Shown piece by piece: positions 7,264 through 61,831 of a stretch of 64,000 bases of DNA (its first letter is position 1; each line of letters opens with the position of its first letter). Where the stretch lies: IMG/VR virus record IMGVR_UViG_3300034102_002845; one strand, written 5' to 3'. The stretch is from a virus. Lineage: Duplodnaviria > Heunggongvirae > Uroviricota > Caudoviricetes. Under the pieces are notes generated by a model. It was not told the origin of the DNA. It did not search any database and was given only the letters and a program-made list of their open reading frames with translations. A program made the translations under genes and the position numbers.

Positions 7264-7350
7264 ACCGGTTAACCCCCTTGCTCCGGGGCGGTTTCCCCCT
7301 TGTTTCTGCGGTGCAGAAACGGTATAGTTACTTTATTGACCTCCGACCCA

Positions 7351-8088
7351 ATGACCACCTTTCAGTTCTACGAAGTCGGCGGTGCCGTGAGAGACTCCCT
7401 CCTTGGGATATCGAGCAAGGACGTTGACTTCTCCGTTGTTGCTCCCGAGGGCGTCTTTCCCACGGCAGACAGCGCCTTTCTGGCAATGGAATCCCAGCTC
7501 ACCGGGCAAGGCTTTCAGGTCTTCGAATCTCGCCGTGAGTTCCTGACCATTCGTGCACGGGTCCCGAAGGGCCATGCGCTGGAAGCCCGCACCGCTGTCG
7601 CTGATTTCGTACTGGCCCGCCGAGACGGTCCTTACAGCGATGGCAGGCGGCCAGACTGGGTCGCTCCTGGTACCCTGGCCGATGATCTGGCTCGGCGTGA
7701 CTTTTCTGTAAATGCACTCGCCCGAGGCGTGGACGGCACCCTGATAGACCTGTTCGGTGGTGTGGAGGATTTGGGTGCCAGTCTGCTGCGCTTTGTGGGT
7801 GACCCCACGAACAGAATCGCTGAGGACGGGCTAAGGGTTGTGCGTGGCTTCCGCTTCTACATCACCAAAGGTCTTGACATCGAGGCCGAAACTTGGAAAG
7901 CCCTCATCTCCGAGTTCGCTGCGGAGAAGCTCTCGAAAGTTTCCGTCGAAAGGGTGCGCGAAGAACTGAACAAAATGTTCCGTGCAAACACCCTGCACTC
8001 TCTTCGCTTGCTCGGTGAGCTGCCTCAGCACACCCAAGAAGCGATCTTCCGCGACGGTCTCCGCCTCGACGCCACAATGGCTCAGTGA
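7351..8088 (+). CDS. cca: class II tRNA nucleotidyltransferase (CCA-adding/poly(A) polymerase family), compact
   Basis: VGGAVRD.LLG..SKDVDF, RRDFSVNALA and EDGLRVVRGFRF motifs. Confidence 0.85.
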   Translation: MTTFQFYEVGGAVRDSLLGISSKDVDFSVVAPEGVFPTADSAFLAMESQLTGQGFQVFESRREFLTIRARVPKGHALEARTAVADFVLARRDGPYSDGRRPDWVAPGTLADDLARRDFSVNALARGVDGTLIDLFGGVEDLGASLLRFVGDPTNRIAEDGLRVVRGFRFYITKGLDIEAETWKALISEFAAEKLSKVSVERVREELNKMFRANTLHSLRLLGELPQHTQEAIFRDGLRLDATMAQ

Positions 8089-9964: not shown

Positions 9965-11092
9965 ATGAACATAGTTTATAGCACCCCTGTCCTACAGTCA
10001 ACAACTCGCATCGGCAAGGTCAAGTTTTGGCAAGGTCACGTTCTTTGTGATGACCGGGGGCAGTGGTTCACACAGTCGTCGTACTGGCAAACCAATAACG
10101 ATAGCTCTTCCTCAGTGATTCAGTTTAGTGATCCTTACTACGTTTGCGGCAAGAATATAGGCAGGTCTAACGAGACCTCCTCCGAGACTCAAGTTTACCT
10201 TGAAATCGAACGTGACTTTAAAAAGCAAGCAGATAAAGGTTACTCGGAGACTGGAAAAAAGTCAAAGGTTCTCCCACTGCCCATGTTGGCTCACAAGTTC
10301 TCGGAAAAAGGACACAAGGTTATCTGGCCTGCTTTCGTTCAACCTAAACTGAACGGACAACGGATGCTACTCGACAATAATGGGGGGTGGTCTCGCGGCG
10401 GCAAAGAAATCATTCCAGAGTGCATTGCTCACATCAAAGATGAGATTGGGCTATTACCTGACGGTGTGATTCTAGACGGAGAACTCATTCTGCCGGGAAA
10501 CCTTCTGCTGCAAAAAACAATGACGGCTATCAAAAAGTTTCGACCAGAGTTGTCCCCCACTCTCGTATACTGGGTATACGACATTGTTGACCCCTCTAAG
10601 ACATTCTCGGAAAGGTTTAGCTTGTTGAGAAACATTCTTGTCCTTGACAAAGAGCATGTGAAAGTCACACCTACGAAGACGGTGGGCAACGCTGCCGAAG
10701 TAATGGCCTACCACGAACATTTCGTTCGCCTCAGATTCGAGGGTTCCATGGTTCGCTTTGACTTGGAAGGTTACGACATTGGCCACCGCAACAACCAACT
10801 CCAGAAAGTGAAAGATTTCGTTGACGGCGAGTTTGAGGTTCTCGATATTGTGGAAGGCGGAGGCAGGTTCAAAGGTGCGGCAATCTTCGAGTGTCGTGCC
10901 ACCACCACGGAAACTTTCACAGTAGTTCCCGAAGGCGACATGGACTACCGCAGAGACCTTTACAGGAATCGAGAGGAAATTCTTTCCACAACGAAGTATC
11001 TTACCGTTCGATACCAAGAACTGAGCAAAGATGGCGTTCCAATCTTTCCTGTTGGGGTATCCTTGCGAGAGACTCAGACGGAGGGTTTCTGA
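9965..11092 (+). CDS. ATP-dependent DNA ligase
   Basis: QPKLNG (motif I), LDGEL (III), EGSMVR (IV), LQKVK (V), C-terminal OB fold. Confidence 0.9.
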   Translation: MNIVYSTPVLQSTTRIGKVKFWQGHVLCDDRGQWFTQSSYWQTNNDSSSSVIQFSDPYYVCGKNIGRSNETSSETQVYLEIERDFKKQADKGYSETGKKSKVLPLPMLAHKFSEKGHKVIWPAFVQPKLNGQRMLLDNNGGWSRGGKEIIPECIAHIKDEIGLLPDGVILDGELILPGNLLLQKTMTAIKKFRPELSPTLVYWVYDIVDPSKTFSERFSLLRNILVLDKEHVKVTPTKTVGNAAEVMAYHEHFVRLRFEGSMVRFDLEGYDIGHRNNQLQKVKDFVDGEFEVLDIVEGGGRFKGAAIFECRATTTETFTVVPEGDMDYRRDLYRNREEILSTTKYLTVRYQELSKDGVPIFPVGVSLRETQTEGF

Positions 11093-13654: not shown

Positions 13655-14110
13655 ATGAAAGTGTTTCTTGATGATGAAAGGCCCACGCCAGGCGGCTGGG
13701 TACGTGCCTTCACCGCCCCTGAAGCCATCGAGTTGCTGACAACAGGGCAAGTCACTGAGCTTTCTTTGGATCACGACCTTGGGCCGGAAGAAGCAGGAAC
13801 TGGATACGACGTTTGCCTGTGGGTGGAAGAGAAAGTCTTCTCTCAAGACTTTTGTACTGAGGACCCTTTTACACCTCCAATCATGAGTGTGCATTCCGCC
13901 AACCCTGTTGGTCGGCAACGAATGGAATTTGCTATTCAAGTAATTTACCATCACTTTAAGGTTACTCAGCCTACGGAGTGGGATTCCTTTAAGCAAACTC
14001 TCCAAGAGAGCCGACGTGACGCGTCCAGAGAATCCTTAGATGCCATCTACAAGCTCCAACAGGACCTGGGTGGTTATGGCGACGACTACGGACCAACGAC
14101 GCGAGACTGA
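13655..14110 (+). CDS. cyclic-phosphate-processing receiver-like domain protein
   Basis: VFLDDER, SLDHDLG, TGYDV and HSANPVG motifs. Confidence 0.75.
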   Translation: MKVFLDDERPTPGGWVRAFTAPEAIELLTTGQVTELSLDHDLGPEEAGTGYDVCLWVEEKVFSQDFCTEDPFTPPIMSVHSANPVGRQRMEFAIQVIYHHFKVTQPTEWDSFKQTLQESRRDASRESLDAIYKLQQDLGGYGDDYGPTTRD

Positions 14111-15725: not shown

Positions 15726-16493
15726 ATGGCACACACAGACACTCTCGGAGACCTCCTTAAGACCCAAGAACAGGCGGAAGCGGGTCGAAAAGCCGACCCG
15801 TTCCTTCCCCTTGTGGCACGTATCGACGGTAGCTGCTTCAGTGCTTTCACTAGGGGGCTAGAGCGACCGTTTGACGAGCGATTTATGCAGTTAATGATTG
15901 AAACCACCAAGTTTCTCGTTGACAAGAGTGAAGCCCAACTTGGGTACTGCCAAAGCGATGAAATTACTCTCTACTGGTACCTCGACAAGGAAAGTTTCTC
16001 GAACAGGGAGTTCTGGTTCGGCGGAAAGTTTCAAAAGCTGACCTCGATCCTGGCCGGCTCCGCATCGTCATACTTTAGTGCGAACATTCCAAAAGTTCTG
16101 CATGAAAAGCAAGGGTGCTATCCCGTGTTTGACGCGAGAGTGTGGAATGTCCCGGACTTAGAACACGCATACCTAAACTTTGTCTGGAGACAACAAGATG
16201 CGCAGAAAAACTCCGTGTCCATGTACGCTCGCCACTTCTTCTCCCACAAGTCTCTTCAGGGCAAAACCTGCCAAGAGATGAAGGAGATGCTCGCCGAAGT
16301 CGGAAAGCCGTGGGAAGAACTCCCTAAGTTTTTCACTCACGGGACGTTCGTGCGAAGACAGCGCCGTCTTGTCAACCCGGAGGATCTTGTTGGCATTCCC
16401 GAGAAGTACCGCCCGACCAAGGCAATCGTTCGCACTGTTGTTGAAAAGTGGGAGCCTTATGGGGAACTTTCCTTGAGCGACTTTGCTCCTTAG
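15726..16493 (+). CDS. thg1: Thg1-like 3'-5' nucleotidyltransferase (tRNA-His guanylyltransferase family)
   Basis: ARIDG, QSDEITL, FDARV and WRQQDAQKNSVSM motifs. Confidence 0.9.
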   Translation: MAHTDTLGDLLKTQEQAEAGRKADPFLPLVARIDGSCFSAFTRGLERPFDERFMQLMIETTKFLVDKSEAQLGYCQSDEITLYWYLDKESFSNREFWFGGKFQKLTSILAGSASSYFSANIPKVLHEKQGCYPVFDARVWNVPDLEHAYLNFVWRQQDAQKNSVSMYARHFFSHKSLQGKTCQEMKEMLAEVGKPWEELPKFFTHGTFVRRQRRLVNPEDLVGIPEKYRPTKAIVRTVVEKWEPYGELSLSDFAP

Positions 16494-17255: not shown

Positions 17256-17688
17256 CCCTAAGTGTTCAATTCAGTGAGCAGGGCGGTTTACCGCCTTGCC
17301 TTTTCCAGGAATTTAAGGTATAATTAACGAGAAGCTGATCGATGACACCGGAACAATGAAGTCCACATTTTACGTGAAGAACGAAAAGGTTGAAAGTACA
17401 AAAGCTCTCGTTCGCCAACACGCAACTCTAAGATTTCTGCAGAACCCTTTACAGGGGGATCTACGACGGAGTTTTGCCTTGAGGGCGAGGTCCAAGACTT
17501 TAATTCTCTCAACGTGCTGATGGAGGAGCTAAACGTCAAAGAAAAACCAGAACCAGGGAGCTTTGTTGAACATTTCTGGTCTGTTGTAAAGGGTTCCCCT
17601 CGCAATCGCAACCTGTGAGTGCTCCGGGGTTAATTCTCTCACAACCCAAGCGGGCGGTAAACCGCCCCTTTACTGGGGGTTTACACCC

Positions 17689-18237
17689 TTGGTCCTGTGG
17701 ATCAGAACCGGTATAATTAGTTCAGTCAAAGCAACCCCCCAAGCAACCGTGAAAAGCACTGAAAGCGCCGAAAGCCCCAAACCGCCTACGGTAGAACTCG
17801 TCGAGTATTGTTGGGCTAACCGAGAGCGGTACATTCGTGACAGTCTGGAGCCCATGTATAGGGATCGATTCGACGAAGCCATTGAGGGGTTCGACTGCCT
17901 TGTTGGAATGGTAGAAGATGGAACTGTGTCCACAATGGAAGAACTGTCTAAGTACGGGATGGACTACCGAGAGGCTGTAGCCAGTCCTTCACCCACCCCA
18001 CCAACCTACACGGACCGAGAAAGCATCATGGGGCTAGCCCTTGATTCAGGTTTTGAGAAGAACTGGGCGGTTGTCCAAGGCGACGGCGACACCGATGAGC
18101 TGGCGGCCGGAAACCAGGCGCTGCCGTTGCTTTACCCCTACTACCGGGCGATCCAGATCTTGCCGGCGGAGCTGATTCAGCTCCTGCAGACGGAACTCAC
18201 TGGTGAAGGCGGCAGGTTGAAAAACTACCTCGCTTAA
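17689..18237 (+). CDS. hypothetical protein (start uncertain, probably after the promoter at 17712)
   Basis: long ORF; promoter lies inside its 5' part. Confidence 0.45.
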   Translation: MVLWIRTGIISSVKATPQATVKSTESAESPKPPTVELVEYCWANRERYIRDSLEPMYRDRFDEAIEGFDCLVGMVEDGTVSTMEELSKYGMDYREAVASPSPTPPTYTDRESIMGLALDSGFEKNWAVVQGDGDTDELAAGNQALPLLYPYYRAIQILPAELIQLLQTELTGEGGRLKNYLA

Positions 18238-18345
18238 ACGACCCAAGCGCACTTTAAATCAGGTGCCCTTACCACAAAATTCGCCCCTCCCGCCCGATGG
18301 GGCGGTTACCCGCCCTTTACTTCCCCGGTCAAACCGGCTATGCTT

Positions 18346-18412
18346 AAGGGGTGGTTGAGAGCTTCGCCTCTCGCCCTGAACCCGGTCTATCCGGGGCAAC
18401 TTGAAAATTTAA
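18346..18412 (+). promoter_or_regulatory. tRNA-operon leader 1: two hairpins plus boxA-like GCAACTTGAAAATTTAA
   Basis: conserved with leaders at 25398, 27208 and 29459. Confidence 0.75.
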
Positions 18413-18425
18413 GAGTTTCACACAC

Positions 18426-18497
18426 TGGTACGTAGCTCAGTGTTAGAGCTGGGGCCTAATCAGCCAGCGGTCGCAGGTTCAATTCCTGCCGTACCAG
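18426..18497 (+). tRNA. degenerate tRNA, anticodon AAT (Ile-like), weak anticodon stem
   Basis: good acceptor, D and T arms; only 3 bp in anticodon stem; C37. Confidence 0.5.
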
Positions 18498-18523
18498 TTG
18501 CCCCTGTAAATTCAGGGGTGTAA

Positions 18524-18597
18524 GCTGCAGTAGGCGAATTGGTTAAGCCGCCAGACTTTCAATCTGGAAATTACGGGTTCAAACCCCGTCTGCAGTA
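18524..18597 (+). tRNA. trnE: tRNA-Glu(TTC)
   Basis: cloverleaf; loop CTTTCAA. Confidence 0.9.
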
Positions 18598-18702
18598 TGA
18601 CCCTGCGGTTTTAACCCCAGGGCAAACCCACCTTGCCCCTACAGATCGGGAGATAACCTCAAAACGAGTCATCGTGGACGGGGATAAGACTCGGTGGGTT
18701 TC

Positions 18703-18829
18703 TGACTAAGAGTGTTAGCGGTTAGCATGTTCCTTTGGGCGAAAACAGTAAGATAGAACGAAGGCCAAGTTCCGTATCTGTAAGTAGTTTTGGACAGAGG
18801 AGGTTGAGGTTCGAGTCCTCATTAGTCAA
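18703..18829 (+). ncRNA. tRNA-like RNA with ~52-nt hairpin insertion in the anticodon arm
   Basis: TGACTAA/TTAGTCA acceptor, TGAGG-TTCGAGT-CCTCA T arm, insert closed by AAAAC/GTTTT. Confidence 0.65.
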
Positions 18830-19039
18830 TTGTCCCCGGCGAAACCGGGTAAGAGGGAAAATTGTCCCTAGGCAACAGGGTGCTTCGTTATGCCCTGACC
18901 ATCAAACATAACGCCATTTCTCGTGAGGGTAAGATCGAGACTCTGCATCCCGGAGTTAAGGGACGCTTCCCCTGGTTGTCGGACAACGAGGCGTTGCATC
19001 TTACGAAAATGATGCAAGTCACAGCTGGTAACTGTGACA

Positions 19040-19101
19040 GGGGATAAGTCTGGTTGACGTTCTGTGCACAAGAACCACGGGTTCGATTCCCGGTTTCTTC
19101 G
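19040..19101 (+). ncRNA. compact 62-nt tRNA-like RNA (GCA in 7-nt loop)
   Basis: GTC/GAC D stem, GTTCT/AGAAC stem, T arm, 1-nt variable region. Confidence 0.45.
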
Positions 19102-19342
19102 TTGGTTTGCGACAGCAAACCGGAAATTGCCCTGGAGGCACACTCACAGGCAAACGCGAGAGAAATTATGGACAATAGAGCCCGAGACGAATTCTCGGGT
19201 ACTCACCCGGCACCCTTCGGGTCCCTTCAAGGGATAACTCCTTAGCCTCATAATGTGAGTGCCTTTCGGGCATTATTCTGCCTGACACAATTCCTCACCG
19301 GACGGTGGGGTGGACCACGGTGATACGGGTTAGGACGAATGT

Positions 19343-19420
19343 TGAAACGGAGCTGGATGCCCATACTCGTACAGGATGGCCTCTGTGCGAACAATGCAGG
19401 TTCGATCCCTGCCGTTTTAA
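19343..19420 (+). ncRNA. degenerate tRNA-Tyr(GTA)-like RNA
   Basis: TGAAACG/CGTTTTA acceptor, GCAGG-TTCGATC-CCTGC T arm, poor D arm. Confidence 0.4.
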
Positions 19421-19705
19421 TTGCCTATGACTAACCACCAGGGAGTCTTGGTAAGGTTTAATCACATGGCAACAAGGTGTCTCGCAGCCTTGACCAAAAG
19501 TGCAGGACCGAAGCGGGGTTTTCACCGCTTGCCGAAACTCTCTGAGGCATGATGAGGGGTTGATGTACCACCAACTGAACTGGTACTCCTGTCAACTTGG
19601 GCCAAGTTGTAAAGTCCCGGCTGGTAATCGGGGAAATCGGCGTTGTTCCTGGAGCTGTATCTGGGGCAGACTCTGCAGAGGCGCCAACTCTCGAAAGAGG
19701 GTTTC

Positions 19706-19781
19706 CGGGACATCGCCTAACTTGGCTATGGCACCACTTTTGGGAAGTGGAAAAATCTCAGTTCGAATCTGAGTTTCCCGA
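19706..19781 (+). tRNA. trnP: tRNA-Pro(TGG)
   Basis: CCACT-TTTGGGA-AGTGG. Confidence 0.85.
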
Positions 19782-19958
19782 TTGCCACTTTGCGCTGGAA
19801 AGATAAACCAGGCTGCCGGTGGCTCAAACCCCCCTTGTTACAAAATTCCTGCTAAACAAGGGGGGGGGGTAAGCGCAGGCTCATCCTTAGATGCCATTTG
19901 TTGGTTTCCTTAGTCTAAGGTGGTATAAAGGTAAACCAACAATCCCTCCGGAGGGGAA

Positions 19959-20023
19959 GGTGCGTGGCTTAGTGGTAAAGCTGGTCCGAAAGGCTGAACG
20001 CAGGTTCGATTCCTGCCGCACCA
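19959..20023 (+). ncRNA. mini-tRNA with anticodon arm replaced by a GAAA tetraloop hairpin
   Basis: GGTGCG/CGCACC acceptor, GCTT/AAGC D stem, canonical T arm. Confidence 0.6.
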
Positions 20024-20252
20024 CTCAAAGTGAGATTCGAGAGTTAGTCGCCTCGACACCCGCAGGGGTGTAGCTTAAAAGACTCCCTAACAGAGCGCAC
20101 TCAACCCCAGTCATCCCACGGCGCTGGTCGCATAGCCGAAGGCACTTCCTGAAGAAGGAACAACTACCGCTGGCGGACCTGGGGCGGTTTGTTGTAAAAC
20201 AATTGGTAATCAGTAGCGTCTCGCGAGCAACGCTGATACAACCAGGTCCTGC

Positions 20253-20320
20253 GACCCTAAGTTAATGCCTCCACGCGGCAGGGTTGGTAACTTTCCCTTT
20301 TGGGAAAGGCTAAATTAACT
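20253..20320 (+). ncRNA. HDV-like self-cleaving ribozyme
   Basis: P1 GACCCT/AGGGTT with G+1.U wobble, P2 AGTTAAT/ATTAACT, P3 GCC/GGC, L3 TCCACGC, P1.1 CC/GG, P4 CTTTCCC/GGGAAAG, J4/2 GCTAA. Confidence 0.85.
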
Positions 20321-20467
20321 GGGAATTTCTCATCCCGTACGTGAGAAACCTCGACCAAGGTGAGAAGTCAGTCGCTCAGGACACTCTGGGAAAACCTGCC
20401 AAGGGTTAATTTGGACGGAACTTTCATCCGTTACGTGAAAGCTCTCCTTTGGATTTCGAAGGAATCC

Positions 20468-20545
20468 GGGGTACTTTGACAGCGATTTGCTTTAAAACCT
20501 CCAGTAGGTCTGGCAATTCGGTGGGTTTGATTCCCGCTTACTCCA
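20468..20545 (+). ncRNA. tRNA-like RNA with G3.U70 and A73, no D stem
   Basis: GGGGTAC/TTACTCC-A acceptor, GTGGG-TTTGATT-CCCGC T arm. Confidence 0.45.
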
Positions 20546-20924
20546 TTGGATTTTCTCAAATCCGACACCCCAGAAAAGTTTACTACCCCTGGTAGTGACT
20601 ATAATGGATGAGTCACTGCTCTGCTTGGGCGAAAGCTAAACGGATAACCGGACCGTTCAGCTCCAAGTATCAGGTTTCCCCTGGGTTAGCTCCCAGGGGG
20701 TTTAACCCATTCTAGAAACTGGGATCGTAAGGAAAACGTCGTTAAGTTCTCGTCACTGCCCTGTAAACAGACGTTAACATGGGGTGCTTTCTTGAGGGCT
20801 GTCTTGCCGCTGGTGCCGCTAGATGAAACACTCTTACCGGCCAGTTTGCGAGCCCTGCTGAAAGCTTAGTCCCCTCTGTGCGGCATTGGTTCGCCAAGGC
20901 CACGGGATTAGCCTCCCGTGCTAC

Positions 20925-21000
20925 CCAGGTATCGCCTAACTTGGCTATGGCACCTCTTTCGGGAAGAGGAATAGTCCCGGTTCAAATCCGGGTGCCTGGA
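20925..21000 (+). tRNA. trnP: tRNA-Pro(CGG)
   Basis: CCTCT-TTCGGGA-AGAGG. Confidence 0.9.
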
Positions 21001-21071
21001 TGTCCCACTAACGTGGGAGCAAGGAAACTTGATAACTAAGAAACTATTCTGTCGCAAATGCGATAGCATTT

Positions 21072-21144
21072 GGGGTCTTAGCTCAGTTGGTAGAGCATCT
21101 CTGTGGCACGGAGAAGGTGACCGGTTCGACCCCGGTAGATTCCA
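21072..21144 (+). tRNA. trnA: tRNA-Ala(GGC)
   Basis: G3.U70; loop GTGGCAC. Confidence 0.9.
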
Positions 21145-21172
21145 CTTTGTGGGCAACCACAAACTAGATCAA

Positions 21173-21246
21173 GGGCTTACATGTACCAAGGCTGGCGAGA
21201 TTGCTTTGCAAGCAAACTGTGAAGAGTTCGATTCTCTTTAGGTCCA
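21173..21246 (+). tRNA. trnA: tRNA-Ala(TGC), atypical D arm
   Basis: G3.U70; loop TTTGCAA. Confidence 0.8.
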
Positions 21247-21264
21247 CTTTCGCTAACGCGAAAA

Positions 21265-21382
21265 CACGAGGGAGAAATGTCGGTTCAAGTCCGACCCTGG
21301 GAGCCTATAACGTAGGGTCCTGGGTAGTTTAACTGGTGCCAAGGACTTGTTATCAGTACGCACAAGTCCAAAAACTTCTCCC
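21265..21382 (+). ncRNA. apparently circularly permuted tRNA (3' half 21265-21303 precedes 5' half 21318-21382)
   Basis: acceptor TCCTGGG/CCTGGGA and anticodon stem TTCTCCC/GGGAGAA pair between the halves. Confidence 0.7.
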
Positions 21383-21386
21383 ACAA

Positions 21387-21459
21387 CCCCTCATAGTGTA
21401 GCGGCCAAGCACGCACCTCTGTCTAAGGTGTATCACGGGTTCAAATCCCGTTGAGGGGG
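21387..21459 (+). tRNA. trnD: tRNA-Asp(GTC)
   Basis: CACCT-CTGTCTA-AGGTG. Confidence 0.9.
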
Positions 21460-21495
21460 TTATTCCGAGGGGTGGCCACCCCAATGACGAATAAA

Positions 21496-21555
21496 GCCAG
21501 AGTCCCTGGATAGGGAAGAGTCGCGACAACTGGGTTCGAATCCCAAGCTCTGGTG
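21496..21555 (+). ncRNA. 60-nt mini-tRNA-like RNA lacking an anticodon arm
   Basis: GCCAGAG/CTCTGGT acceptor, TCCCT/AGGGA hairpin, TTCGAAT T loop. Confidence 0.55.
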
Positions 21556-21640
21556 TTGATACTTCGTATCAATTGCTGCTCCGGCAACGCTGCGGTGTTG
21601 CCTAAGAGCAAATCCCCTTTCTTTAAACCTCAAAGAAAGA

Positions 21641-21700
21641 TTTCACGATCCTACTGGAGGATTGCCATCGGCAAAGCAGGTTCGAGTCCTGCCTTGGAAA
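21641..21700 (+). ncRNA. 60-nt mini-tRNA-like RNA
   Basis: ATCCT/AGGAT and TGCC/GGCA hairpins, GCAGG-TTCGAGT-CCTGC T arm. Confidence 0.5.
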
Positions 21701-21791
21701 TTGGTGCGAAGATCCCTAAATCTTTAAGCCAGCTTGCCTCAGAATCCAGCTGTTTGCTTAGGGGCGAACGATCTCTGGTGAAAAGAGCGAG

Positions 21792-21864
21792 TCTCTCATC
21801 GACTAATTGGACAAGTCCCCGCCCGCTCAGGGTGGTAATCCAGGTTCGAACCCTGGTGAGAGTG
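21792..21864 (+). tRNA. trnE: tRNA-Glu(CTC)
   Basis: CCGCC-CGCTCAG-GGTGG; G at position 33. Confidence 0.75.
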
Positions 21865-21893
21865 TTTGCTCTAGCGTGCTAGAGTAGTTAAGA

Positions 21894-21967
21894 GCCCGAG
21901 TGACCCAGCGGAAGAGGTGCCTGACTTAAAATCAGGAAGTCGTAGGGTTCGAATCCCACCTCGGGTA
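21894..21967 (+). tRNA. trnL: tRNA-Leu(TAA), short variable loop
   Basis: CCTGA-CTTAAAA-TCAGG. Confidence 0.85.
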
Positions 21968-22018
21968 TTGCTCCTTTGGCCTGGGCCTGGAAGCTCAGTG
22001 AATAAGGAACAAACAATC

Positions 22019-22094
22019 GCGTATGTACCCCAACCGGAAGAGGGGCAACACTGAGACTGTTGTTATGTGGAGGTTCGACCCCCTCTCATGCGCA
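22019..22094 (+). tRNA. trnL: tRNA-Leu(GAG), short variable loop
   Basis: CAACA-CTGAGAC-TGTTG. Confidence 0.8.
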
Positions 22095-22167
22095 TTTTCC
22101 TCTCACCCCTTTCCTCACGGTGGCGTGAACTTGGAAAGAACCCTACGGTTGAAAACCATGGGCAAAA

Positions 22168-22238
22168 TCTCGAATCGACTAGTGGTAGGTCGCCTGTCTC
22201 TGAAACAGGAAACTTTGGTTCGAATCCAAATTTGAGAA
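22168..22238 (+). tRNA. trnQ: tRNA-Gln(CTG)
   Basis: CCTGT-CTCTGAA-ACAGG; U1-A72. Confidence 0.85.
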
Positions 22239-22291
22239 TAACGCTTGGGGCGTGTGTGCGGTCCTGCGTACGTTTCTCGTATAGAAACCTT

Positions 22292-22380
22292 GGAAGAGTG
22301 GTCGAGTGGCTGATGACGATTGCTTGGAAAGCAATTGAGGCGCAAAAGCGTCTCCGGAGGTTCGAATCCTCTCTCTTCCG
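22292..22380 (+). tRNA. trnS: tRNA-Ser(GGA)
   Basis: long variable arm; loop TTGGAAA. Confidence 0.9.
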
Positions 22381-22439
22381 TCTCACTTGAGAGTAGTACA
22401 GCATATAGGGTAAATTAAGGAAGTCAATACGAGCTTATT

Positions 22440-23141
22440 ATGTCGCTAGGTTACTTCTCAGACGAGGTAGTTGAGTGGCTTTACGAAAATTACTCAGAGT
22501 TGGCCGGGAGTATTCTCTACGAATTTACAACGTGCCAGCGACCCAACGGGACTGTCTACGGCACGGCAGGAACTTGTCGAAAAGGCACAGAGATAGAACA
22601 ACGCCGCCAGGAGTCAATAACTCACCTGAACACTACCCTGGCTTCCTTAAGGGACAAGCTAGATAAGTCCCCCAAAGAGGGCAGGGACAGGATAAATAGA
22701 CTGATCACCAAGTTGGAAACGGACCTAAAGGCTATTCAGGGTGTCAAAGGGGTGGAAAAGAAAAGTACGGGGGTCGGTAGTAGGGCAACAAGTCAGGATC
22801 TTTCTCGAAATACTAGAGATGCCTCCTCGATGACGCCTGAAAGGTCTCAAAATAAGGAGTATGGGTTTTACGGTACTACTCAATACGCGAATCCCAAGGA
22901 AGTGGAAGAGCGCTGGCGTAACGCATCACGAGGGATTCAGTCTCAAGGGGTGCTTCCGATATACGCACGACGCCTGCTCGACGCGTCGTGGGGTAGGCAT
23001 TTGGCAAATGAGCTGGGGAAGACACCGACTGACAAGGTTTGGAAAACGGTCCAAGGAAAGCTTGAGAAGCGTGGTTCACCAGAACGAAAACACTTCCTGA
23101 AGATGTTGAGGATGGTCACACAAGAGGACTACGAAGATTGA
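22440..23141 (+). CDS. hypothetical protein with C.R..G..YGT.G.CRKG motif
   Basis: motif shared with 40625..41434. Confidence 0.7.
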   Translation: MSLGYFSDEVVEWLYENYSELAGSILYEFTTCQRPNGTVYGTAGTCRKGTEIEQRRQESITHLNTTLASLRDKLDKSPKEGRDRINRLITKLETDLKAIQGVKGVEKKSTGVGSRATSQDLSRNTRDASSMTPERSQNKEYGFYGTTQYANPKEVEERWRNASRGIQSQGVLPIYARRLLDASWGRHLANELGKTPTDKVWKTVQGKLEKRGSPERKHFLKMLRMVTQEDYED

Positions 23142-24543: not shown

Positions 24544-24945
24544 TTGTTAATACACACAAGCAAACCTATGTTCTCCACAAAACCTTCGCTCATCGAGAAA
24601 ACTACATTGTTTTCGATTGACAATCACTCAGACAAGCAGGTTACGGTGACCACTCGCTTTACCCACCCTAGCACAGGTGAAGAAGTAGGAGAGTATTCCT
24701 ATATAGTCTTCTGTGAGAGTGCTTACCTTGGCAGCAACGGGGACGCGGTTCTGGTTAGCCCGTGGAAATGGGTGGGACACTGGGTCACCTATTACTTGAA
24801 GGACGGTGTCACGGAGGTATCCGTGCCCTCCGTCTCTCACGTTCAGGCACGCAGAGTCCTTAATCGAAGAACCTCGTGGTGGGGTCGAGTAATGAATACG
24901 CTAACTGGGTACGGGAGCGGCGAATTGTTTGCACCTTGGAACTAG
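24544..24945 (+). CDS. hypothetical protein
   Basis: ORF. Confidence 0.55.
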   Translation: MLIHTSKPMFSTKPSLIEKTTLFSIDNHSDKQVTVTTRFTHPSTGEEVGEYSYIVFCESAYLGSNGDAVLVSPWKWVGHWVTYYLKDGVTEVSVPSVSHVQARRVLNRRTSWWGRVMNTLTGYGSGELFAPWN

Positions 24946-25073
24946 GCCACTAGGCCAGTAGGGCGGTTTCCCGCCCTTGTATCTACCCCGCAGAAACGCT
25001 ATAGTTACTTCAGTGCTTTAGACAAAGCTGCTCTCTGGCATGCATCCACATTACACAAAACCACGCGAGAATC

Positions 25074-25307: not shown

Positions 25308-25397
25308 AAGAGGTTTACTTTTTGTAAAGTGCGCTAAGCTAGCTTGCGACTGGGGTTCAAGAGGGCGGTTTCCCCGCTTTACTTCCCTGGTGAAAAA

Positions 25398-25475
25398 CGC
25401 TATACTAAAGGGGTGGTTGGGAAGCTCGGCTTCCTCCTCGCTCCCGCTCTTGCGGACGGCACCTCGAAAACTTAA
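25398..25475 (+). promoter_or_regulatory. tRNA-operon leader 2 with boxA-like GCACCTCGAAAACTTAA
   Basis: same architecture as the other leaders. Confidence 0.75.
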
Positions 25476-26418: not shown

Positions 26419-26503
26419 CGCCCCATCGACTAACGGCGTCGTAGCCAGGTTAGGTCGCTACTTTCTTAAGGTAGAAATGCCGGTTCGACTCCGGCTGGGG
26501 CGA
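26419..26503 (+). tRNA. trnK: tRNA-Lys(CTT) with ~13-nt hairpin insertion in the D loop
   Basis: CTACT-TTCTTAA-GGTAG; GGC-GTCGTA-GCC insertion. Confidence 0.7.
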
Positions 26504-26934: not shown

Positions 26935-27159
26935 ATGGCTCAAGCAACTTTCGGCACCCTTAAAGGGTTGAGTGTTCGCAAAGAGAACGAGCTTTGTGTA
27001 TCCATCGCTGGAGAACTCACCGAGCTTTTGGAAGAGGGAGCATCCGCTCCTACCCGAGACGAGATTCTTGCGAAGCTGCAGGACTGCGTCAGGATGTACG
27101 GCAACGGGCACCTTGACGATTTCTTCGTTCGCAAGGTTGTATTTGAGTTCACCCTTTGA
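26935..27159 (+). CDS. hypothetical protein
   Basis: ATG after promoter, within track ORF 26830..27159. Confidence 0.55.
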   Translation: MAQATFGTLKGLSVRKENELCVSIAGELTELLEEGASAPTRDEILAKLQDCVRMYGNGHLDDFFVRKVVFEFTL

Positions 27160-27207
27160 TACGGCGGTTCCCGTCCTTGTTTCTGCCCCGCAGAAACGCT
27201 ATACTAA

Positions 27208-29397: not shown

Positions 29398-29458
29398 AGG
29401 CCCCCAGCAAAGGGACGGTAAACCGCCCTTTCGCCCCACGGAGAAACCGGTTATACTA

Positions 29459-29527
29459 AAGGAGTGGTTGGGAAGCTCGGCTTCCGCCTCGCTTCCGCTC
29501 TTGCGGGGGGGCAACTTGAAAATTTAA
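29459..29527 (+). promoter_or_regulatory. tRNA-operon leader 4 with boxA-like GCAACTTGAAAATTTAA
   Basis: near copy of leader 2. Confidence 0.75.
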
Positions 29528-32546: not shown

Positions 32547-32861
32547 ATAGCAAGGTTAACCAAATCGCCCTAGGGCGGTTTACCGCCCTTGCACCGACGG
32601 TTTCCACCCTTGTTTCTGCGGGACAGAAACGCTATAGTAGTTAGGTTGGAACCAAAGCACCATGGACCCCCCTGAACCAAAACCTTAGTCTGACCGACCG
32701 TGTCTGGCGGTTTGCCGCAGATCACGTTGACCCAGACCCCTTAATTCAGGCTAGATTCCTATCCCTTGTCTCAGCTCTCCTGGACGCAGGGATCGAGTCA
32801 GGACGCGAAGCTGAACCCGTGGGTTAACACCCCACCCACCCCTTGACCCTTAGAGCCAACG

Positions 32862-33792: not shown

Positions 33793-33918
33793 CGCCATAG
33801 GAGTCCTGCAGAAGCTGAAAGAGTTTGTAATTTCCCGTTCGGTTGAAGGCGGTTAACCGCCCAGCCTTGGCCGGTTCCCCGGCTTGTTTCTACCCCGCAG
33901 AAACGGTATAGTAAGTGC

Positions 33919-34086
33919 ATGGAAGAAACCACCAAGCAACAAATCCTCCGACTCATTCAGTCGGAGAAGGAAGCCCGGTCCAAGGCACTGTCCGGTCAGA
34001 TGGGAACCAAACAAGCCTACGGCTTCATCGCCGGTTACACGGAGTCAATCCTTGCTCAGATAGAGCAATTGCTCACGGAGCCTTGA
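33919..34086 (+). CDS. 55-aa hypothetical protein (probably leaderless; not in ORF track)
   Basis: ATGGAA 6 nt after TATAGT; MEETTKQQILRL... Confidence 0.5.
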   Translation: MEETTKQQILRLIQSEKEARSKALSGQMGTKQAYGFIAGYTESILAQIEQLLTEP

Positions 34087-35842: not shown

Positions 35843-36186
35843 GGTCCCTGTCGCAAGGTTACACTAAAGTGGGCGGTTTACCGAACCTAAACCGACGGTT
35901 TCCACCCTTGTTTCTGCAGCGCAGAAACGGTATAGTTACTTCATTGAAGCCCCGCCCATGACCCCAGCCACTCTTCCTCCCGTCGCTCGCGAGATCGAAG
36001 CCCAAATCCTTAAGGGGTGCGGCTCAAGGGTTGAGTAGTTCTTTCGCAGTGGCGACGCCTACACCCTTGTGGGATCCTCCGACGCTGTCCGTGCAGCTAC
36101 ATCCTTTTGCGTATCCAACAGACTAGCCAAGCTGACTGAGGAAATTCACTATAACAAAGAAACGGAAGAGGCATACGGATACTTAG

Positions 36187-43019: not shown

Positions 43020-43128
43020 GTAGCTTCGGGGGTGAGAGGGCGGTAAACCGTTTCATTTGGGACGGTTTCCCCGCTTGTTTCTGCACCGAAGAAACGGTAT
43101 GATTAATTCAGTCGAGCCACTCGAAACA

Positions 43129-46373: not shown

Positions 46374-46528
46374 GTCCCTTCTGTGCTGTTACGTAGGGTT
46401 ACCAACCCTCAAGGGTTGCCCTTTCCACCCAGACAAGGAAGGGTAACCGGTTGCTCCGGGGCGGTTTCCCGGCTTGTTTCTGCGGCGCAGAAACGGTATA
46501 CTTACTTTAGTGCAAACCCTCAAGTCCT

Positions 46529-56697: not shown

Positions 56698-57306
56698 ATG
56701 GCTTCCACCCCTCCAACAATCCTACAAGTTAAGTCCCTGCGAGAAAAGACCGGTGCGGGCCTGATTCTCTGCAAAGAAGCACTTATTTTTTCTGACAGTG
56801 ATGAGGCCGGTGCGATCACGTGGTTGCGGCAGAGAGGAGTGGCCTTAGCCGATGGTAAGGTTGGTCGGAGCGCACGAGAAGGTACTGTGGGCAGCTACAT
56901 TCACACTGGCGGTAAGGTTGGAGTCCTTATCGAGGTGAACTGCGAAACGGATTTTGTGGCCAAATCGGAGCCTTTCCAGGAACTTGTTCGAAATCTTTCG
57001 ATGCAAATTGCAGCGTGCCCCTCTGTGTGCCACGTTTCAATCTTTGATATCCCTGAGGAGACTCTCCTTGAGGAGACTCGGATTGAGTCCGGCAAGGCAG
57101 ATCTTGCTAAGAAACCCGAAGCAATGCGAAACAAGATCGTTGAGGGTCGTGTGGCAAAGCGATTCAGAGAGCTGTCTCTCATGGACCAGCCCTACATCAA
57201 AGACAACTCAATGAGTATCGAAACATACGTGAAGAACTTCGCTGCGGTAGTTGGCGAAAACATCGTTGTGAAGCGATTCGTACGTTTTGTCCTCGGCAGC
57301 TCCTGA
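56698..57306 (+). CDS. tsf: translation elongation factor Ts (short cyanobacterial type)
   Basis: VK.LREKTGAG...CK.AL; YIHTGGKVGVLIEVNCETDFVA; L..QPYIKD; V.RFVRF.LG. Confidence 0.92.
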   Translation: MASTPPTILQVKSLREKTGAGLILCKEALIFSDSDEAGAITWLRQRGVALADGKVGRSAREGTVGSYIHTGGKVGVLIEVNCETDFVAKSEPFQELVRNLSMQIAACPSVCHVSIFDIPEETLLEETRIESGKADLAKKPEAMRNKIVEGRVAKRFRELSLMDQPYIKDNSMSIETYVKNFAAVVGENIVVKRFVRFVLGSS

Positions 57307-58157: not shown

Positions 58158-59300
58158 ATGACAATTACACGAAAAGAAATTGAAGACGGGATGATCCTGT
58201 TTTGCAAGTCAGGCAGCCACGCCTATGGCCTCAACACCGAGATGTCTGACCTGGACTTTAAGGGCATCTGTGTTGCGCCACAGCGGTTTTACACCACTCT
58301 CGAAACATTTGAGCAAAAGGATAAAGGGTGGGCAGGGGAGCAACAAGACGAGGGTGAGTTCAACTCAAGATTCCCTGAGTTAGATAATTCCGACTCAGTG
58401 GTGTACGGCATTCGCAGGTACCTGAGCTTGTTACGGTCGCAAAACCCAAACATTTTGGAGATGCTGTGGCAAACTCCCGAAAGCTACCTATACCTTGACT
58501 TTCTGGGGCAGTCGCTAATTGATAACCGAAGGAAGCTCATTTCCAAGAGAATCTCTGGCACATTCGTTCAGTACGCAAGGTCCCAGATCAAGAAAATGGA
58601 GACTCACCGCAAGTGGCTCTTAAACCCTCCAACACGGCGACCGACGTGGGAGGACTACGGGGTTTCTTCGCCGAGCTTAACCCCCTCTCAAATCGAGTCA
58701 TTCATTGAGTACTTGTACTTGCTGATTAAAGACAGAATCGAATACTACCAGCCTTCAGTCGAGCTGTACGAGTTACTCAACGACCGAGTTGATTGGAAGG
58801 GAATCCTGAAGCAGAGTGTCTTACCGGAAGAGTGCTTCGACGAGACGCAGAAAATCACGAGGGCAAGTGACGAGTACATGGCCCTTCTTCACTCAAGCCA
58901 GCAGTACCGGTCAGATTTAAAACGGTGGAGTAATTACCAAGATTGGTTGACTAATCGGAATGTGAAGCGATCCGAAATTGAGCGGGCCTGTGGGTACGAT
59001 GGGAAGAACGCCAGCCACTGTGTTCGACTTATGAAAATGGCTATTGAGGGAATGCGAACCGGAGAGCTTCTTGTGAATAGGAAGTTAGCGGGGGACGCAG
59101 ATTTTCTTCTGGACATTAAGTACGGCAAGATTACGTATGACGAACTAAGCTCAATTGTAACTCAACTGTTTAAGGAGGCTGAGCACGTAATGACGAACGA
59201 GTGCGTCTTACCGAGCACGGTAGATGACCAACTCATCAATACTCTTTGCGCTGAGACTGTGGAAAAATTTCAAAGTCTCGGTTGTATTGAGAACCGGTGA
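58158..59300 (+). CDS. DNA polymerase beta-superfamily nucleotidyltransferase (RlaP-like)
   Basis: GSHAYG....SD.D.KG; NPNILEML; YDGKNASHCVRL. Confidence 0.8.
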   Translation: MTITRKEIEDGMILFCKSGSHAYGLNTEMSDLDFKGICVAPQRFYTTLETFEQKDKGWAGEQQDEGEFNSRFPELDNSDSVVYGIRRYLSLLRSQNPNILEMLWQTPESYLYLDFLGQSLIDNRRKLISKRISGTFVQYARSQIKKMETHRKWLLNPPTRRPTWEDYGVSSPSLTPSQIESFIEYLYLLIKDRIEYYQPSVELYELLNDRVDWKGILKQSVLPEECFDETQKITRASDEYMALLHSSQQYRSDLKRWSNYQDWLTNRNVKRSEIERACGYDGKNASHCVRLMKMAIEGMRTGELLVNRKLAGDADFLLDIKYGKITYDELSSIVTQLFKEAEHVMTNECVLPSTVDDQLINTLCAETVEKFQSLGCIENR

Positions 59301-61499: not shown

Positions 61500-61530
61500 G
61501 CGGACAGTCCTACCATACGACTCTAAACTA

Positions 61531-61831
61531 GGGGTAGCTCTGGAAGATAGTGCCCTATACAGGGGTTCGAATCCCCTCACCTCCATTTGAGAACGTGACC
61601 GTCCCTTCTTCAACCTTCCGACTTACTGAGAAGGCAGGGTCACTGTGGGTTAAACTCCCACCTCTAGTCAAGGGGGTGCCATGGTCTCGCTAGGGTAAAG
61701 ATGTCGCCTGAGTGAAAGCCGCTTGCATAAGCACAAAATAGACGCTAACAACATCGTCAAATTCGAGAGGATTGCCGTTGCCGTTTGAGCAACCGCACTC
61801 TGACTCATAACTCGGGGGGTTTCGGCCCCCT
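61531..61831 (+). ncRNA. ssrA: two-piece (circularly permuted) tmRNA: acceptor piece ~61531-61585, intervening segment, coding piece from 61672; tag (A)ANNIVKFERIAVAV
   Basis: AGGGG-TTCGAAT-CCCCT T arm and CACCTCC-A lie upstream of GGGGGTG (G3.U70); helix TAGGGTA/TGCCCTA; tag ORF 61744-61788. Confidence 0.9.

Follow-up and report, generated by a model that had tools for sequence, protein, structure and literature searches.

HDV-like ribozymes located beside phage tRNAs were first described in 2024, whereby the members reported at that time, the theta ribozymes, were found to be minimal: they lack the P4 domain, possess a short L4 only and originate from gut Caudoviricetes (PMC10879173). The tRNA-associated theta ribozymes cut within 5 nt to either side of the tRNA 3' end, 42% of the theta occurrences lie isolated in non-coding sequence, no tRNA adjoining them, and genes for CCA-adding-type enzymes are enriched in the phages which carry these ribozymes (PMC10879173). 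The locus described here is part of a phage DNA stretch of 64,000 nucleotides, which was analysed as a whole and is referred to as the window. Like the theta ribozymes, it comprises a double pseudoknot in sense orientation within a phage tRNA region, which is predicted to generate the 3' terminus of the upstream RNA; as in theta phages, a CCA-adding-type enzyme is encoded by the same phage. Furthermore, a 10-bp stem which ends at position -1 of the predicted cut resembles the tRNA acceptor stem found ahead of a theta ribozyme. Unlike the theta ribozymes, however, the locus possesses a P4 of 7 bp, and as compared to the limit of 5 nt in the tRNA-associated subgroup, its predicted cut and the nearest tRNA-like 3' end (20024) are 228 nt apart. 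The hosts differ as well, theta hosts being recoded gut phages whereas the host of the locus is a lake-water jumbo phage with the standard code. The label theta, which the sequence-only reading had brought in, therefore does not apply by the published definition (PMC10879173), since the locus bears P4 and adjoins no tRNA 3' end. Rather, it looks like a full-size freshwater counterpart of the isolated theta class, with a defined upstream product. As such, it represents a concrete orphan case: the HDV-like ribozyme is full-size, its host is a freshwater jumbo phage, and environmental RNA provides evidence of cutting.

Next to the theta ribozymes, drz-Fpra-1 (Rfam RF02682) resembles the locus in the layout of P1, P3 and P4, in the type of L3 and in the GGCUAA of J4/2, while P1 of the locus comprises 6 bp and not 7, its P2 region is shorter and its setting is a phage tRNA/ncRNA operon. 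Punctuation of long non-coding transcripts by tRNA-like structures is known from the mitochondrial tRNA punctuation model and from the 3' processing of MALAT1-mascRNA. As in these systems, at the locus a non-decoding tRNA shape appears to mark a processing site which frees a non-tRNA RNA, with the difference that here the other end of this RNA would be made by a ribozyme.

Phage ribozymes of the same build were retrieved from IMG/VR by a pattern search which required the P3/L3 type, the GG and the GGCTAA core. Their P1, P2 and P4 differ in sequence yet pair, and they are not homologues of this locus. Three of them were found with G+1 directly after the 3' end of a tRNA:

L005, position 645, minus strand: G+1 directly after tRNA-Asp
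L007, position 8226: G+1 directly after tRNA-Thr
L010, position 8630, minus strand: G+1 directly after tRNA-Leu

These three share with the locus an L3 of the type UCCNCGN, GG-(A/U)AAC in J1/4, a P4, the GGCUAA and a 6-bp P1 with the G.U pair first; the L3 type is common to the tRNA-abutting phage ribozymes, but was demanded by the search pattern. They differ from it in that their G+1 abuts a tRNA, whereas at the locus a non-tRNA three-way junction, with its closing stem, takes the position of the tRNA. In further contigs (L013 and L033-L040) a distance of 8-35 nt separates the ribozyme from a tRNA downstream of it, and the sequence ahead of the ribozyme is not tRNA. Given these varied tRNA-adjacent finds, P4-bearing HDV-like ribozymes therefore recur in phage tRNA regions, and theta-type tRNA trimming is predicted from L005, L007 and L010 to extend beyond the P4-less ribozymes.

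At the locus itself the following features were assigned:

19958-20024, plus strand: mini-tRNA (Rfam tRNA, 40.4 bits; cloverleaf as MFE structure; identical in all haplotypes)
20025-20252, plus strand: 228-nt non-coding RNA, likely client of the ribozyme (RNA contig 20029-20248 in metatranscriptome run X22)
20126-20132, plus strand: GGTCGCA, proposed anti-P1 strand (not conserved, within chance)
20253-20320, plus strand: HDV-like, predicted self-cleaving ribozyme of 68 bases (hand reading, descriptor, RF02682, MFE fold, haplotypes)
20253-58 with 20280-85, plus strand: P1, GACCCT with AGGGTT, first pair G20253.U20285, same in all haplotypes
20259, plus strand: J1/2, A
20260-66 with 20314-20, plus strand: P2, AGTTAAT with ATTAACT
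20267-69 with 20277-79, plus strand: P3, GCC with GGC
20270-76, plus strand: L3, TCCACGC (UCCACGC in RNA), last base C or T across haplotypes
C20271-C20272 with G20286-G20287, plus strand: P1.1
20288-90, plus strand: J1/4, UAA
20291-97 with 20302-08, plus strand: P4 hairpin of 7 bp, CTTTCCC with GGGAAAG, loop TTTT, pairing probability at least 0.9
20309-20313, plus strand: J4/2, GCTAA, with putative catalytic C20310 (invariant) and T or C at 20311

Every helix of the HDV-like nested double pseudoknot is thus present on the plus strand of 20253-20320, i.e., a P1 within the usual 6-7 bp, a P2, a 3-bp P3, a 2-bp P1.1 and the optional P4, whereby G+1 contributes a G20253.T20285 wobble to the base of P1. 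Each pairing could be read from the sequence, which bears out the earlier claim that all HDV-like elements are in place. The conserved core of P2 comprises 6 bp (20261-66 with 20314-19), as the end pair A20260-T20320 is gone in the haplotypes L001 (A) and L030 (C). In J4/2 the putative catalytic C is followed by N-R-A, which reads C20310-T-A-A in the window and C-C-A-A in L001 and L030. When the isolated 68-mer was folded, the MFE structure corresponded to the nested part, namely P1, P3 and P4. The cut is predicted between C20252 and G20253, and the sequence supports this earlier placement of the cleavage site of a complete HDV-like ribozyme. We therefore consider the element to be a real HDV-like ribozyme which very probably cleaves itself.

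Alternatively, the motif could be a chance look-alike or an inactive relic, in which case the breaks in RNA contigs described below would be artefacts of assembly or coverage; this explanation is held to be very improbable. A descriptor was employed in which P1 must open with a G.U pair and be followed by GG, P3 must be Watson-Crick paired, L3 must contain CC, P2 must comprise at least 5 bp, and the 3' strand of P2 must be preceded by C-N-R-A. When both strands were scanned, 20253-20320 was the sole match in the window, and dinucleotide-preserving shuffles of the window yielded 0.037-0.045 matches of the core descriptor per 64 kb. Upon addition of a P4 of at least 5 bp, none out of 1000 shuffled windows matched, which argues against a look-alike: the ribozyme motif exceeds chance. 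The comparison with family models speaks for the ribozyme by its alignment, and for a look-alike or relic by its score. Here, RF02682 (HDV-F-prausnitzii) aligns over its full model length at 20254-20320 with the same helices, but its score of 24.8 bits (E = 0.045 in a 1.35-kb search) is below the gathering score of 44, whereby the model was made from unrelated sequences and P2 and P1.1 are not scored by Rfam models. RF02682 is the only HDV-family match in the 64-kb window and appears only in the permissive search; at gathering scores, the whole window gave no match to any ribozyme family, and the other HDV-family models gave none at E up to 10. A blastn search of 19900-20950 against GenBank phages was without match, and so was the search for the exact core 21-mer in IMG/VR, the latter because the relatives have T at 20276. 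By pattern search, the ribozyme was found as a single copy in a 277-kb IMG/VR relative.

The conservation of the locus was derived from three haplotypes of other lake metagenomes (L001/L002 together with L050-L052; L030; the window-like L046-L049), which share 94-97% identity with the window. For the block consisting of mini-tRNA, 228-nt RNA and ribozyme, no homologues of greater divergence were found, every copy being at least 94% identical, and a metagenome scan anchored on the neighbouring protein returned short contigs only, none of which extends to the ribozyme. Within the ribozyme six alignment columns are variable. L3 varies in its final base, 20276 (C or T); 20298, 20301 and 20302 form part of the L4 loop and the P4 apex and give rise to the loops UUUU, CUUUA and UUC with a stem of 6-7 bp kept throughout; the N of J4/2, 20311, is U or C; and in the P2 pair farthest out, 20320 is T, A or C. 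No haplotype carries a substitution in P1, the 6-bp P2 core, P3, P1.1 or at C20310. If the P4 apex pair is taken to be under constraint as well, the constrained positions number 49 out of 68, and no more than one variable column out of six falls on them (hypergeometric p ~0.005). This pattern is consistent with purifying selection on the predicted fold, not with covariation; compensatory changes in P1 to P4 are missing because the haplotypes are too alike (at least 94% identical). That there is no covariation at the locus, and that the whole RNA block is dispensable, being absent from L003 and L053-L057, would both suit an inactive relic, against which it has to be held that the variable sites all avoid the core.

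Upstream of the ribozyme, the mini-tRNA possesses the acceptor, D and T arms but, in the place of the anticodon arm, a short hairpin with a GAAA loop, so that its anticodon region accounts for 12 nt in the Rfam alignment as compared to 17 nt; it was not called by ARAGORN (19958-20024). It probably serves as an RNase P/RNase Z processing signal by which the 228-nt RNA would obtain its 5' end, a role suggested by a single contig start at 20029 (X22). A weaker tRNA-shaped candidate was noted at 20469-20546 (antisense Rfam match with E = 5, fold z of -0.6). The 228-nt RNA possesses no start codon that would give at least 40 aa and has no Rfam match, and for 20025-20924 neither paralogues nor long complements exist elsewhere in the window. 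The sequence-only reading had described the upstream partner as a large structured ncRNA. As a whole, the 228 nt fold like their shuffles (z = -0.02), and the description is confined by this result to the last 80 nt, which form a three-way junction (20173-20252, z = -2.3). Its closing stem of 10 bp pairs 20173-82 with 20242-52, leaves T20250 bulged and ends exactly at -1. Farther upstream, the hairpin 20056-61/20066-71 shows one compensatory change, C20057-G20070 being replaced by U-A in L001. A cryptic tRNA ending at 20252 was considered and rejected, as there is no T-arm and neither ARAGORN nor Rfam reports a tRNA with this end, which upholds the earlier view of a non-tRNA partner. Wherever the haplotypes have the block, mini-tRNA, 228-nt RNA and ribozyme occur together. 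Since these three travel together while the downstream neighbour varies, the upstream 228-nt RNA was assigned as the client of the ribozyme, and the locus hence offers an exact candidate product of 228 nt, placed between mini-tRNA and ribozyme.

Parts of the region are contained in four lake metatranscriptome runs (X19, X20, X21 and X22). In X21 the RNA contigs extend over 19940-20246 and 20264-20814, and in X22 over 20029-20248 and 20268-20780; in these two runs no RNA contig spans 20252/20253, there are no loose ends, and the depth changes from one side to the other, while DNA contigs are uninterrupted across the site. The first of the X22 contigs is nearly identical to the interval from the mini-tRNA 3' end (20024) to the cut site. 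The gaps comprise 4-6 nt before and 11-15 nt after the predicted cut, and such shortfalls would match the losses of random-primed libraries at true RNA ends, whereby contigs cannot show true RNA ends and a coverage drop-out caused by a tight pseudoknot is an alternative cause of the gap. The depth of the RNA block is 5-10 times that of the flanking ORFs, so the signal is RNA and not carried-over DNA. A promoter or terminator was rejected as cause of the break, as no consensus is found at the site. Overall, the contig breaks bracket 20252/20253 and lend moderate support to the predicted cut; the contig stops are a weak hint, and the two runs likely belong to one campaign. This weakness of contigs as evidence for RNA ends could be taken in favour of a relic with artefactual breaks. 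The polymorphisms at 20209 and 20276, however, are expected to place k-mer branch points at ~20275 and ~20246 and would not yield an uncovered gap of 17-19 nt centred on the cut.

In X19 and X20, 20042-20509 is nearly absent and 20276-20509 is of zero depth, the latter not being counted as evidence of absence; the client RNA is therefore not an abundant stable species in these two runs. Both runs contain a joint at which 20107 is followed, after an intervening TTGT, by the upstream position 20029 (depth 17-20); a rearranged strain, a chimera formed in the library, or a fragment that is circular or concatenated could account for it. The non-tRNA segments 18883-19642, 19813-20015 and 20624-21001 are adapter-flanked in X19 and X20 and reach a depth of 400-1400 as compared to ~10 for neighbouring ORFs; these segments are stable phage ncRNAs. 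Several of the ncRNAs abundant in X19 and X20 carry a T-arm-like GGTTCGA (18800-18830, 19076-19100 and 19394-19420).

Regulated self-processing of an ncRNA had been proposed for the locus, and the two parts of this proposal fared differently. Self-processing finds support in the RNA contigs which break at the site. For regulation, the heptamer GGTCGCA (20126-32) had been put forward, and its exact complementarity to TGCGACC (20250-56) is true in sequence. By pairing across the cut, 20126-32 would block P1 and keep cleavage off until a signal releases the helix, an explanation which we regard as improbable. Next to the exact match of 7 nt, it can draw on the pairing probability of the anti-P1 helix in a pseudoknot-free energy model of 20025-20320, amounting to ~0.9 for the window and ~0.63 for L001, whereby the helix stacks on the stem 20175-82/20242-49. 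For the window, the nested-only model gives -95.5 kcal/mol for the anti-P1 fold versus -91.1 kcal/mol with P1, P3 and P4 enforced, P2 and P1.1 being uncounted. On the other hand, when the upstream 216 nt were shuffled, 9.4% of the shuffles contained a complement of at least 7 nt to the cleavage-site region, and 36% attained the same duplex energy, which makes it an ordinary value. In L030 the heptamer reads GGTTATA, i.e., three substitutions with the target unchanged, so that the pairing is lost uncompensated (probability 0), and in the upstream-only fold the three bases concerned sit in an unpaired loop. Further, the RNA contigs bear L001-type differences and thus belong to a haplotype in which the heptamer is intact, and these contigs nevertheless break at the cut. 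A ligand- or protein-binding element is not evident. Alternative-helix regulation is exemplified by Alt1-type inhibition in HDV, to which the heptamer of the locus compares as a pairing without conservation: it is within chance and lost in L030, hence a conserved alternative pairing which sequesters P1 is not supported. A conserved anti-P1 switch is thus unlikely; what the helix may do is to slow folding modestly in some haplotypes.

Considering the above, the P4-bearing ribozyme was reasoned to be, with fair probability, a constitutive punctuation element which determines the 3' end at which the 228-nt RNA 20025-20252 stops. The motif, its rarity by chance, its variation, the transcription of the region and the contig breaks are observed, whereas we infer catalysis, the chemistry of the ends, the RNA which benefits and the processing at the mini-tRNA. 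The suggested mechanism assumes that the ribozyme folds into the double pseudoknot as the polymerase finishes 20253-20320. General acid-base catalysis, in which C20310 and Mg2+ take part, would then sever the chain directly ahead of the ribozyme, between C20252 and G20253. The upstream RNA would thereby end in a 2',3'-cyclic phosphate, and the ribozyme would begin with a 5'-OH and remain joined to the downstream RNA. Together with the presumed RNase P/RNase Z site provided by the mini-tRNA 19958-20024, the cut would free the 228-nt RNA, whose 3' end would be located at the foot of the 10-bp stem. The ribozyme would hence punctuate a junction which lacks a tRNA to recruit protein RNases, thereby doing the same job as theta ribozymes do at tRNA 3' ends. 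Beyond the single element, the locus suggests that tRNA-shaped signals and ribozymes in combination divide the RNA-only operons of phages.

A different assignment of the beneficiary was weighed as well, namely that the ribozyme serves the RNA downstream, either because its compact fold with a 5'-OH shields an ncRNA/tRNA-Pro precursor from 5' decay or because the cut removes a leader. Such a downstream service is considered unlikely, albeit with some points in its favour: the ribozymes of L013 and L033-L040 stand shortly ahead of a tRNA, and the contigs which start inside the ribozyme are deeper than those upstream of the break (20 versus 13.9 in X21 and 14.2 versus 5.3 in X22). At the locus, however, the next canonical tRNA is 270-600 nt away, the zero-depth stretch 20276-20509 of X19 and X20 is located on this side, and L030 is devoid of 20333-20547, while no haplotype has the ribozyme without the mini-tRNA and the upstream RNA. 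The difference in L030 is a 215-nt indel between 11-nt near-identical direct repeats, GGAATTTCTCA and GGATTTTCTCA.

The punctuation reading leaves the cyclic phosphate as a by-product of the cut. An improbable extension of it takes this end as the purpose, whereby the end of the 228-nt RNA would be healed, CCA-tagged, ligated or sensed by a phage RNA-end toolkit; with equally little probability, this toolkit would consist of the cREC protein, RlaP, the ligase, the CCA-adding enzyme and, in relatives, PNKP. Within this extension, the anti-P1 helix might act as an attenuator in some haplotypes, and the joint 20107 to 20029 could be a trace of ligation. If true, the locus would stand for a ribozyme-initiated pathway of RNA maturation or signalling and for a new class of phage ncRNA.

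The phage itself provides the background for these considerations. Near-identical viral contigs are found in IMG/VR, one of which is of 277 kb and 98% complete by CheckV, and likewise in many lake-water metagenomes, on account of which the window was assigned to a large freshwater phage of about 260-280 kb. The window contains 44 tRNA genes and a permuted tmRNA, and all long ORFs and RNA genes are on the plus strand. The ribozyme is accordingly located in a non-coding region of a tailed-phage genome and in sense with its neighbours: around it, a tRNA/ncRNA transcription unit of ~4 kb (18240-22440) has no credible ORF, is flanked by hairpin terminators and includes a phage promoter with a leader repeat at ~18310-18393. 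A recoded genetic code hiding an ORF was considered and rejected, as all three stops end long ORFs; reassigning any stop opens both strands about equally, and hence the standard genetic code fits. A tRNA with the anticodon UUA, which would read the UAA stop, was reported by ARAGORN at 26419-26503 (Rfam tRNA, 31 bits).

The window further encodes a PolyA_pol/CCA-adding-type nucleotidyltransferase, an ATP-dependent ligase, a protein with a cREC cyclic-phosphate-processing domain, Thg1, EF-Ts and RlaP, and relatives in addition encode a HAD_PNKP phosphatase (L050, 7069-7470, minus strand). These phage-encoded RNA-end enzymes fit the type of RNA ends which a ribozyme would make. The genes and the promoter-like repeats of the window are located as follows:

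7300-8088, 9965-11092, 13655-14110, 15726-16493, 56698-57306 and 58158-59300: translation/RNA-repair gene loci
17651-17726, 24939-25014, 27153-27206, 32572-32647, 33846-33921, 35870-35945, 43037-43112 and 46436-46511: promoter-like repeats

The repeated promoter-like motif consists of a GGGCGGTTTACCGCCC hairpin followed by CTTGTTTCTGC...GCAGAAACGGTATAGT, and a conserved leader of ~84 nt is found ahead of tRNA arrays only (18310-18393, 25372-25455 and 29423-29506). The RNA-only block is modular, as 19426-19939, 20333-20547 and 18381-21599 are present or absent among L001, L030, L003, L025 and L053-L057, with 19426-19939 missing from both L001 and L030. Finally, the permuted tmRNA, which is of the two-piece type, is located at 61530-61788 (Rfam RF04321, 68 bits), and ARAGORN predicts ANNIVKFERIAVAV as its tag peptide.
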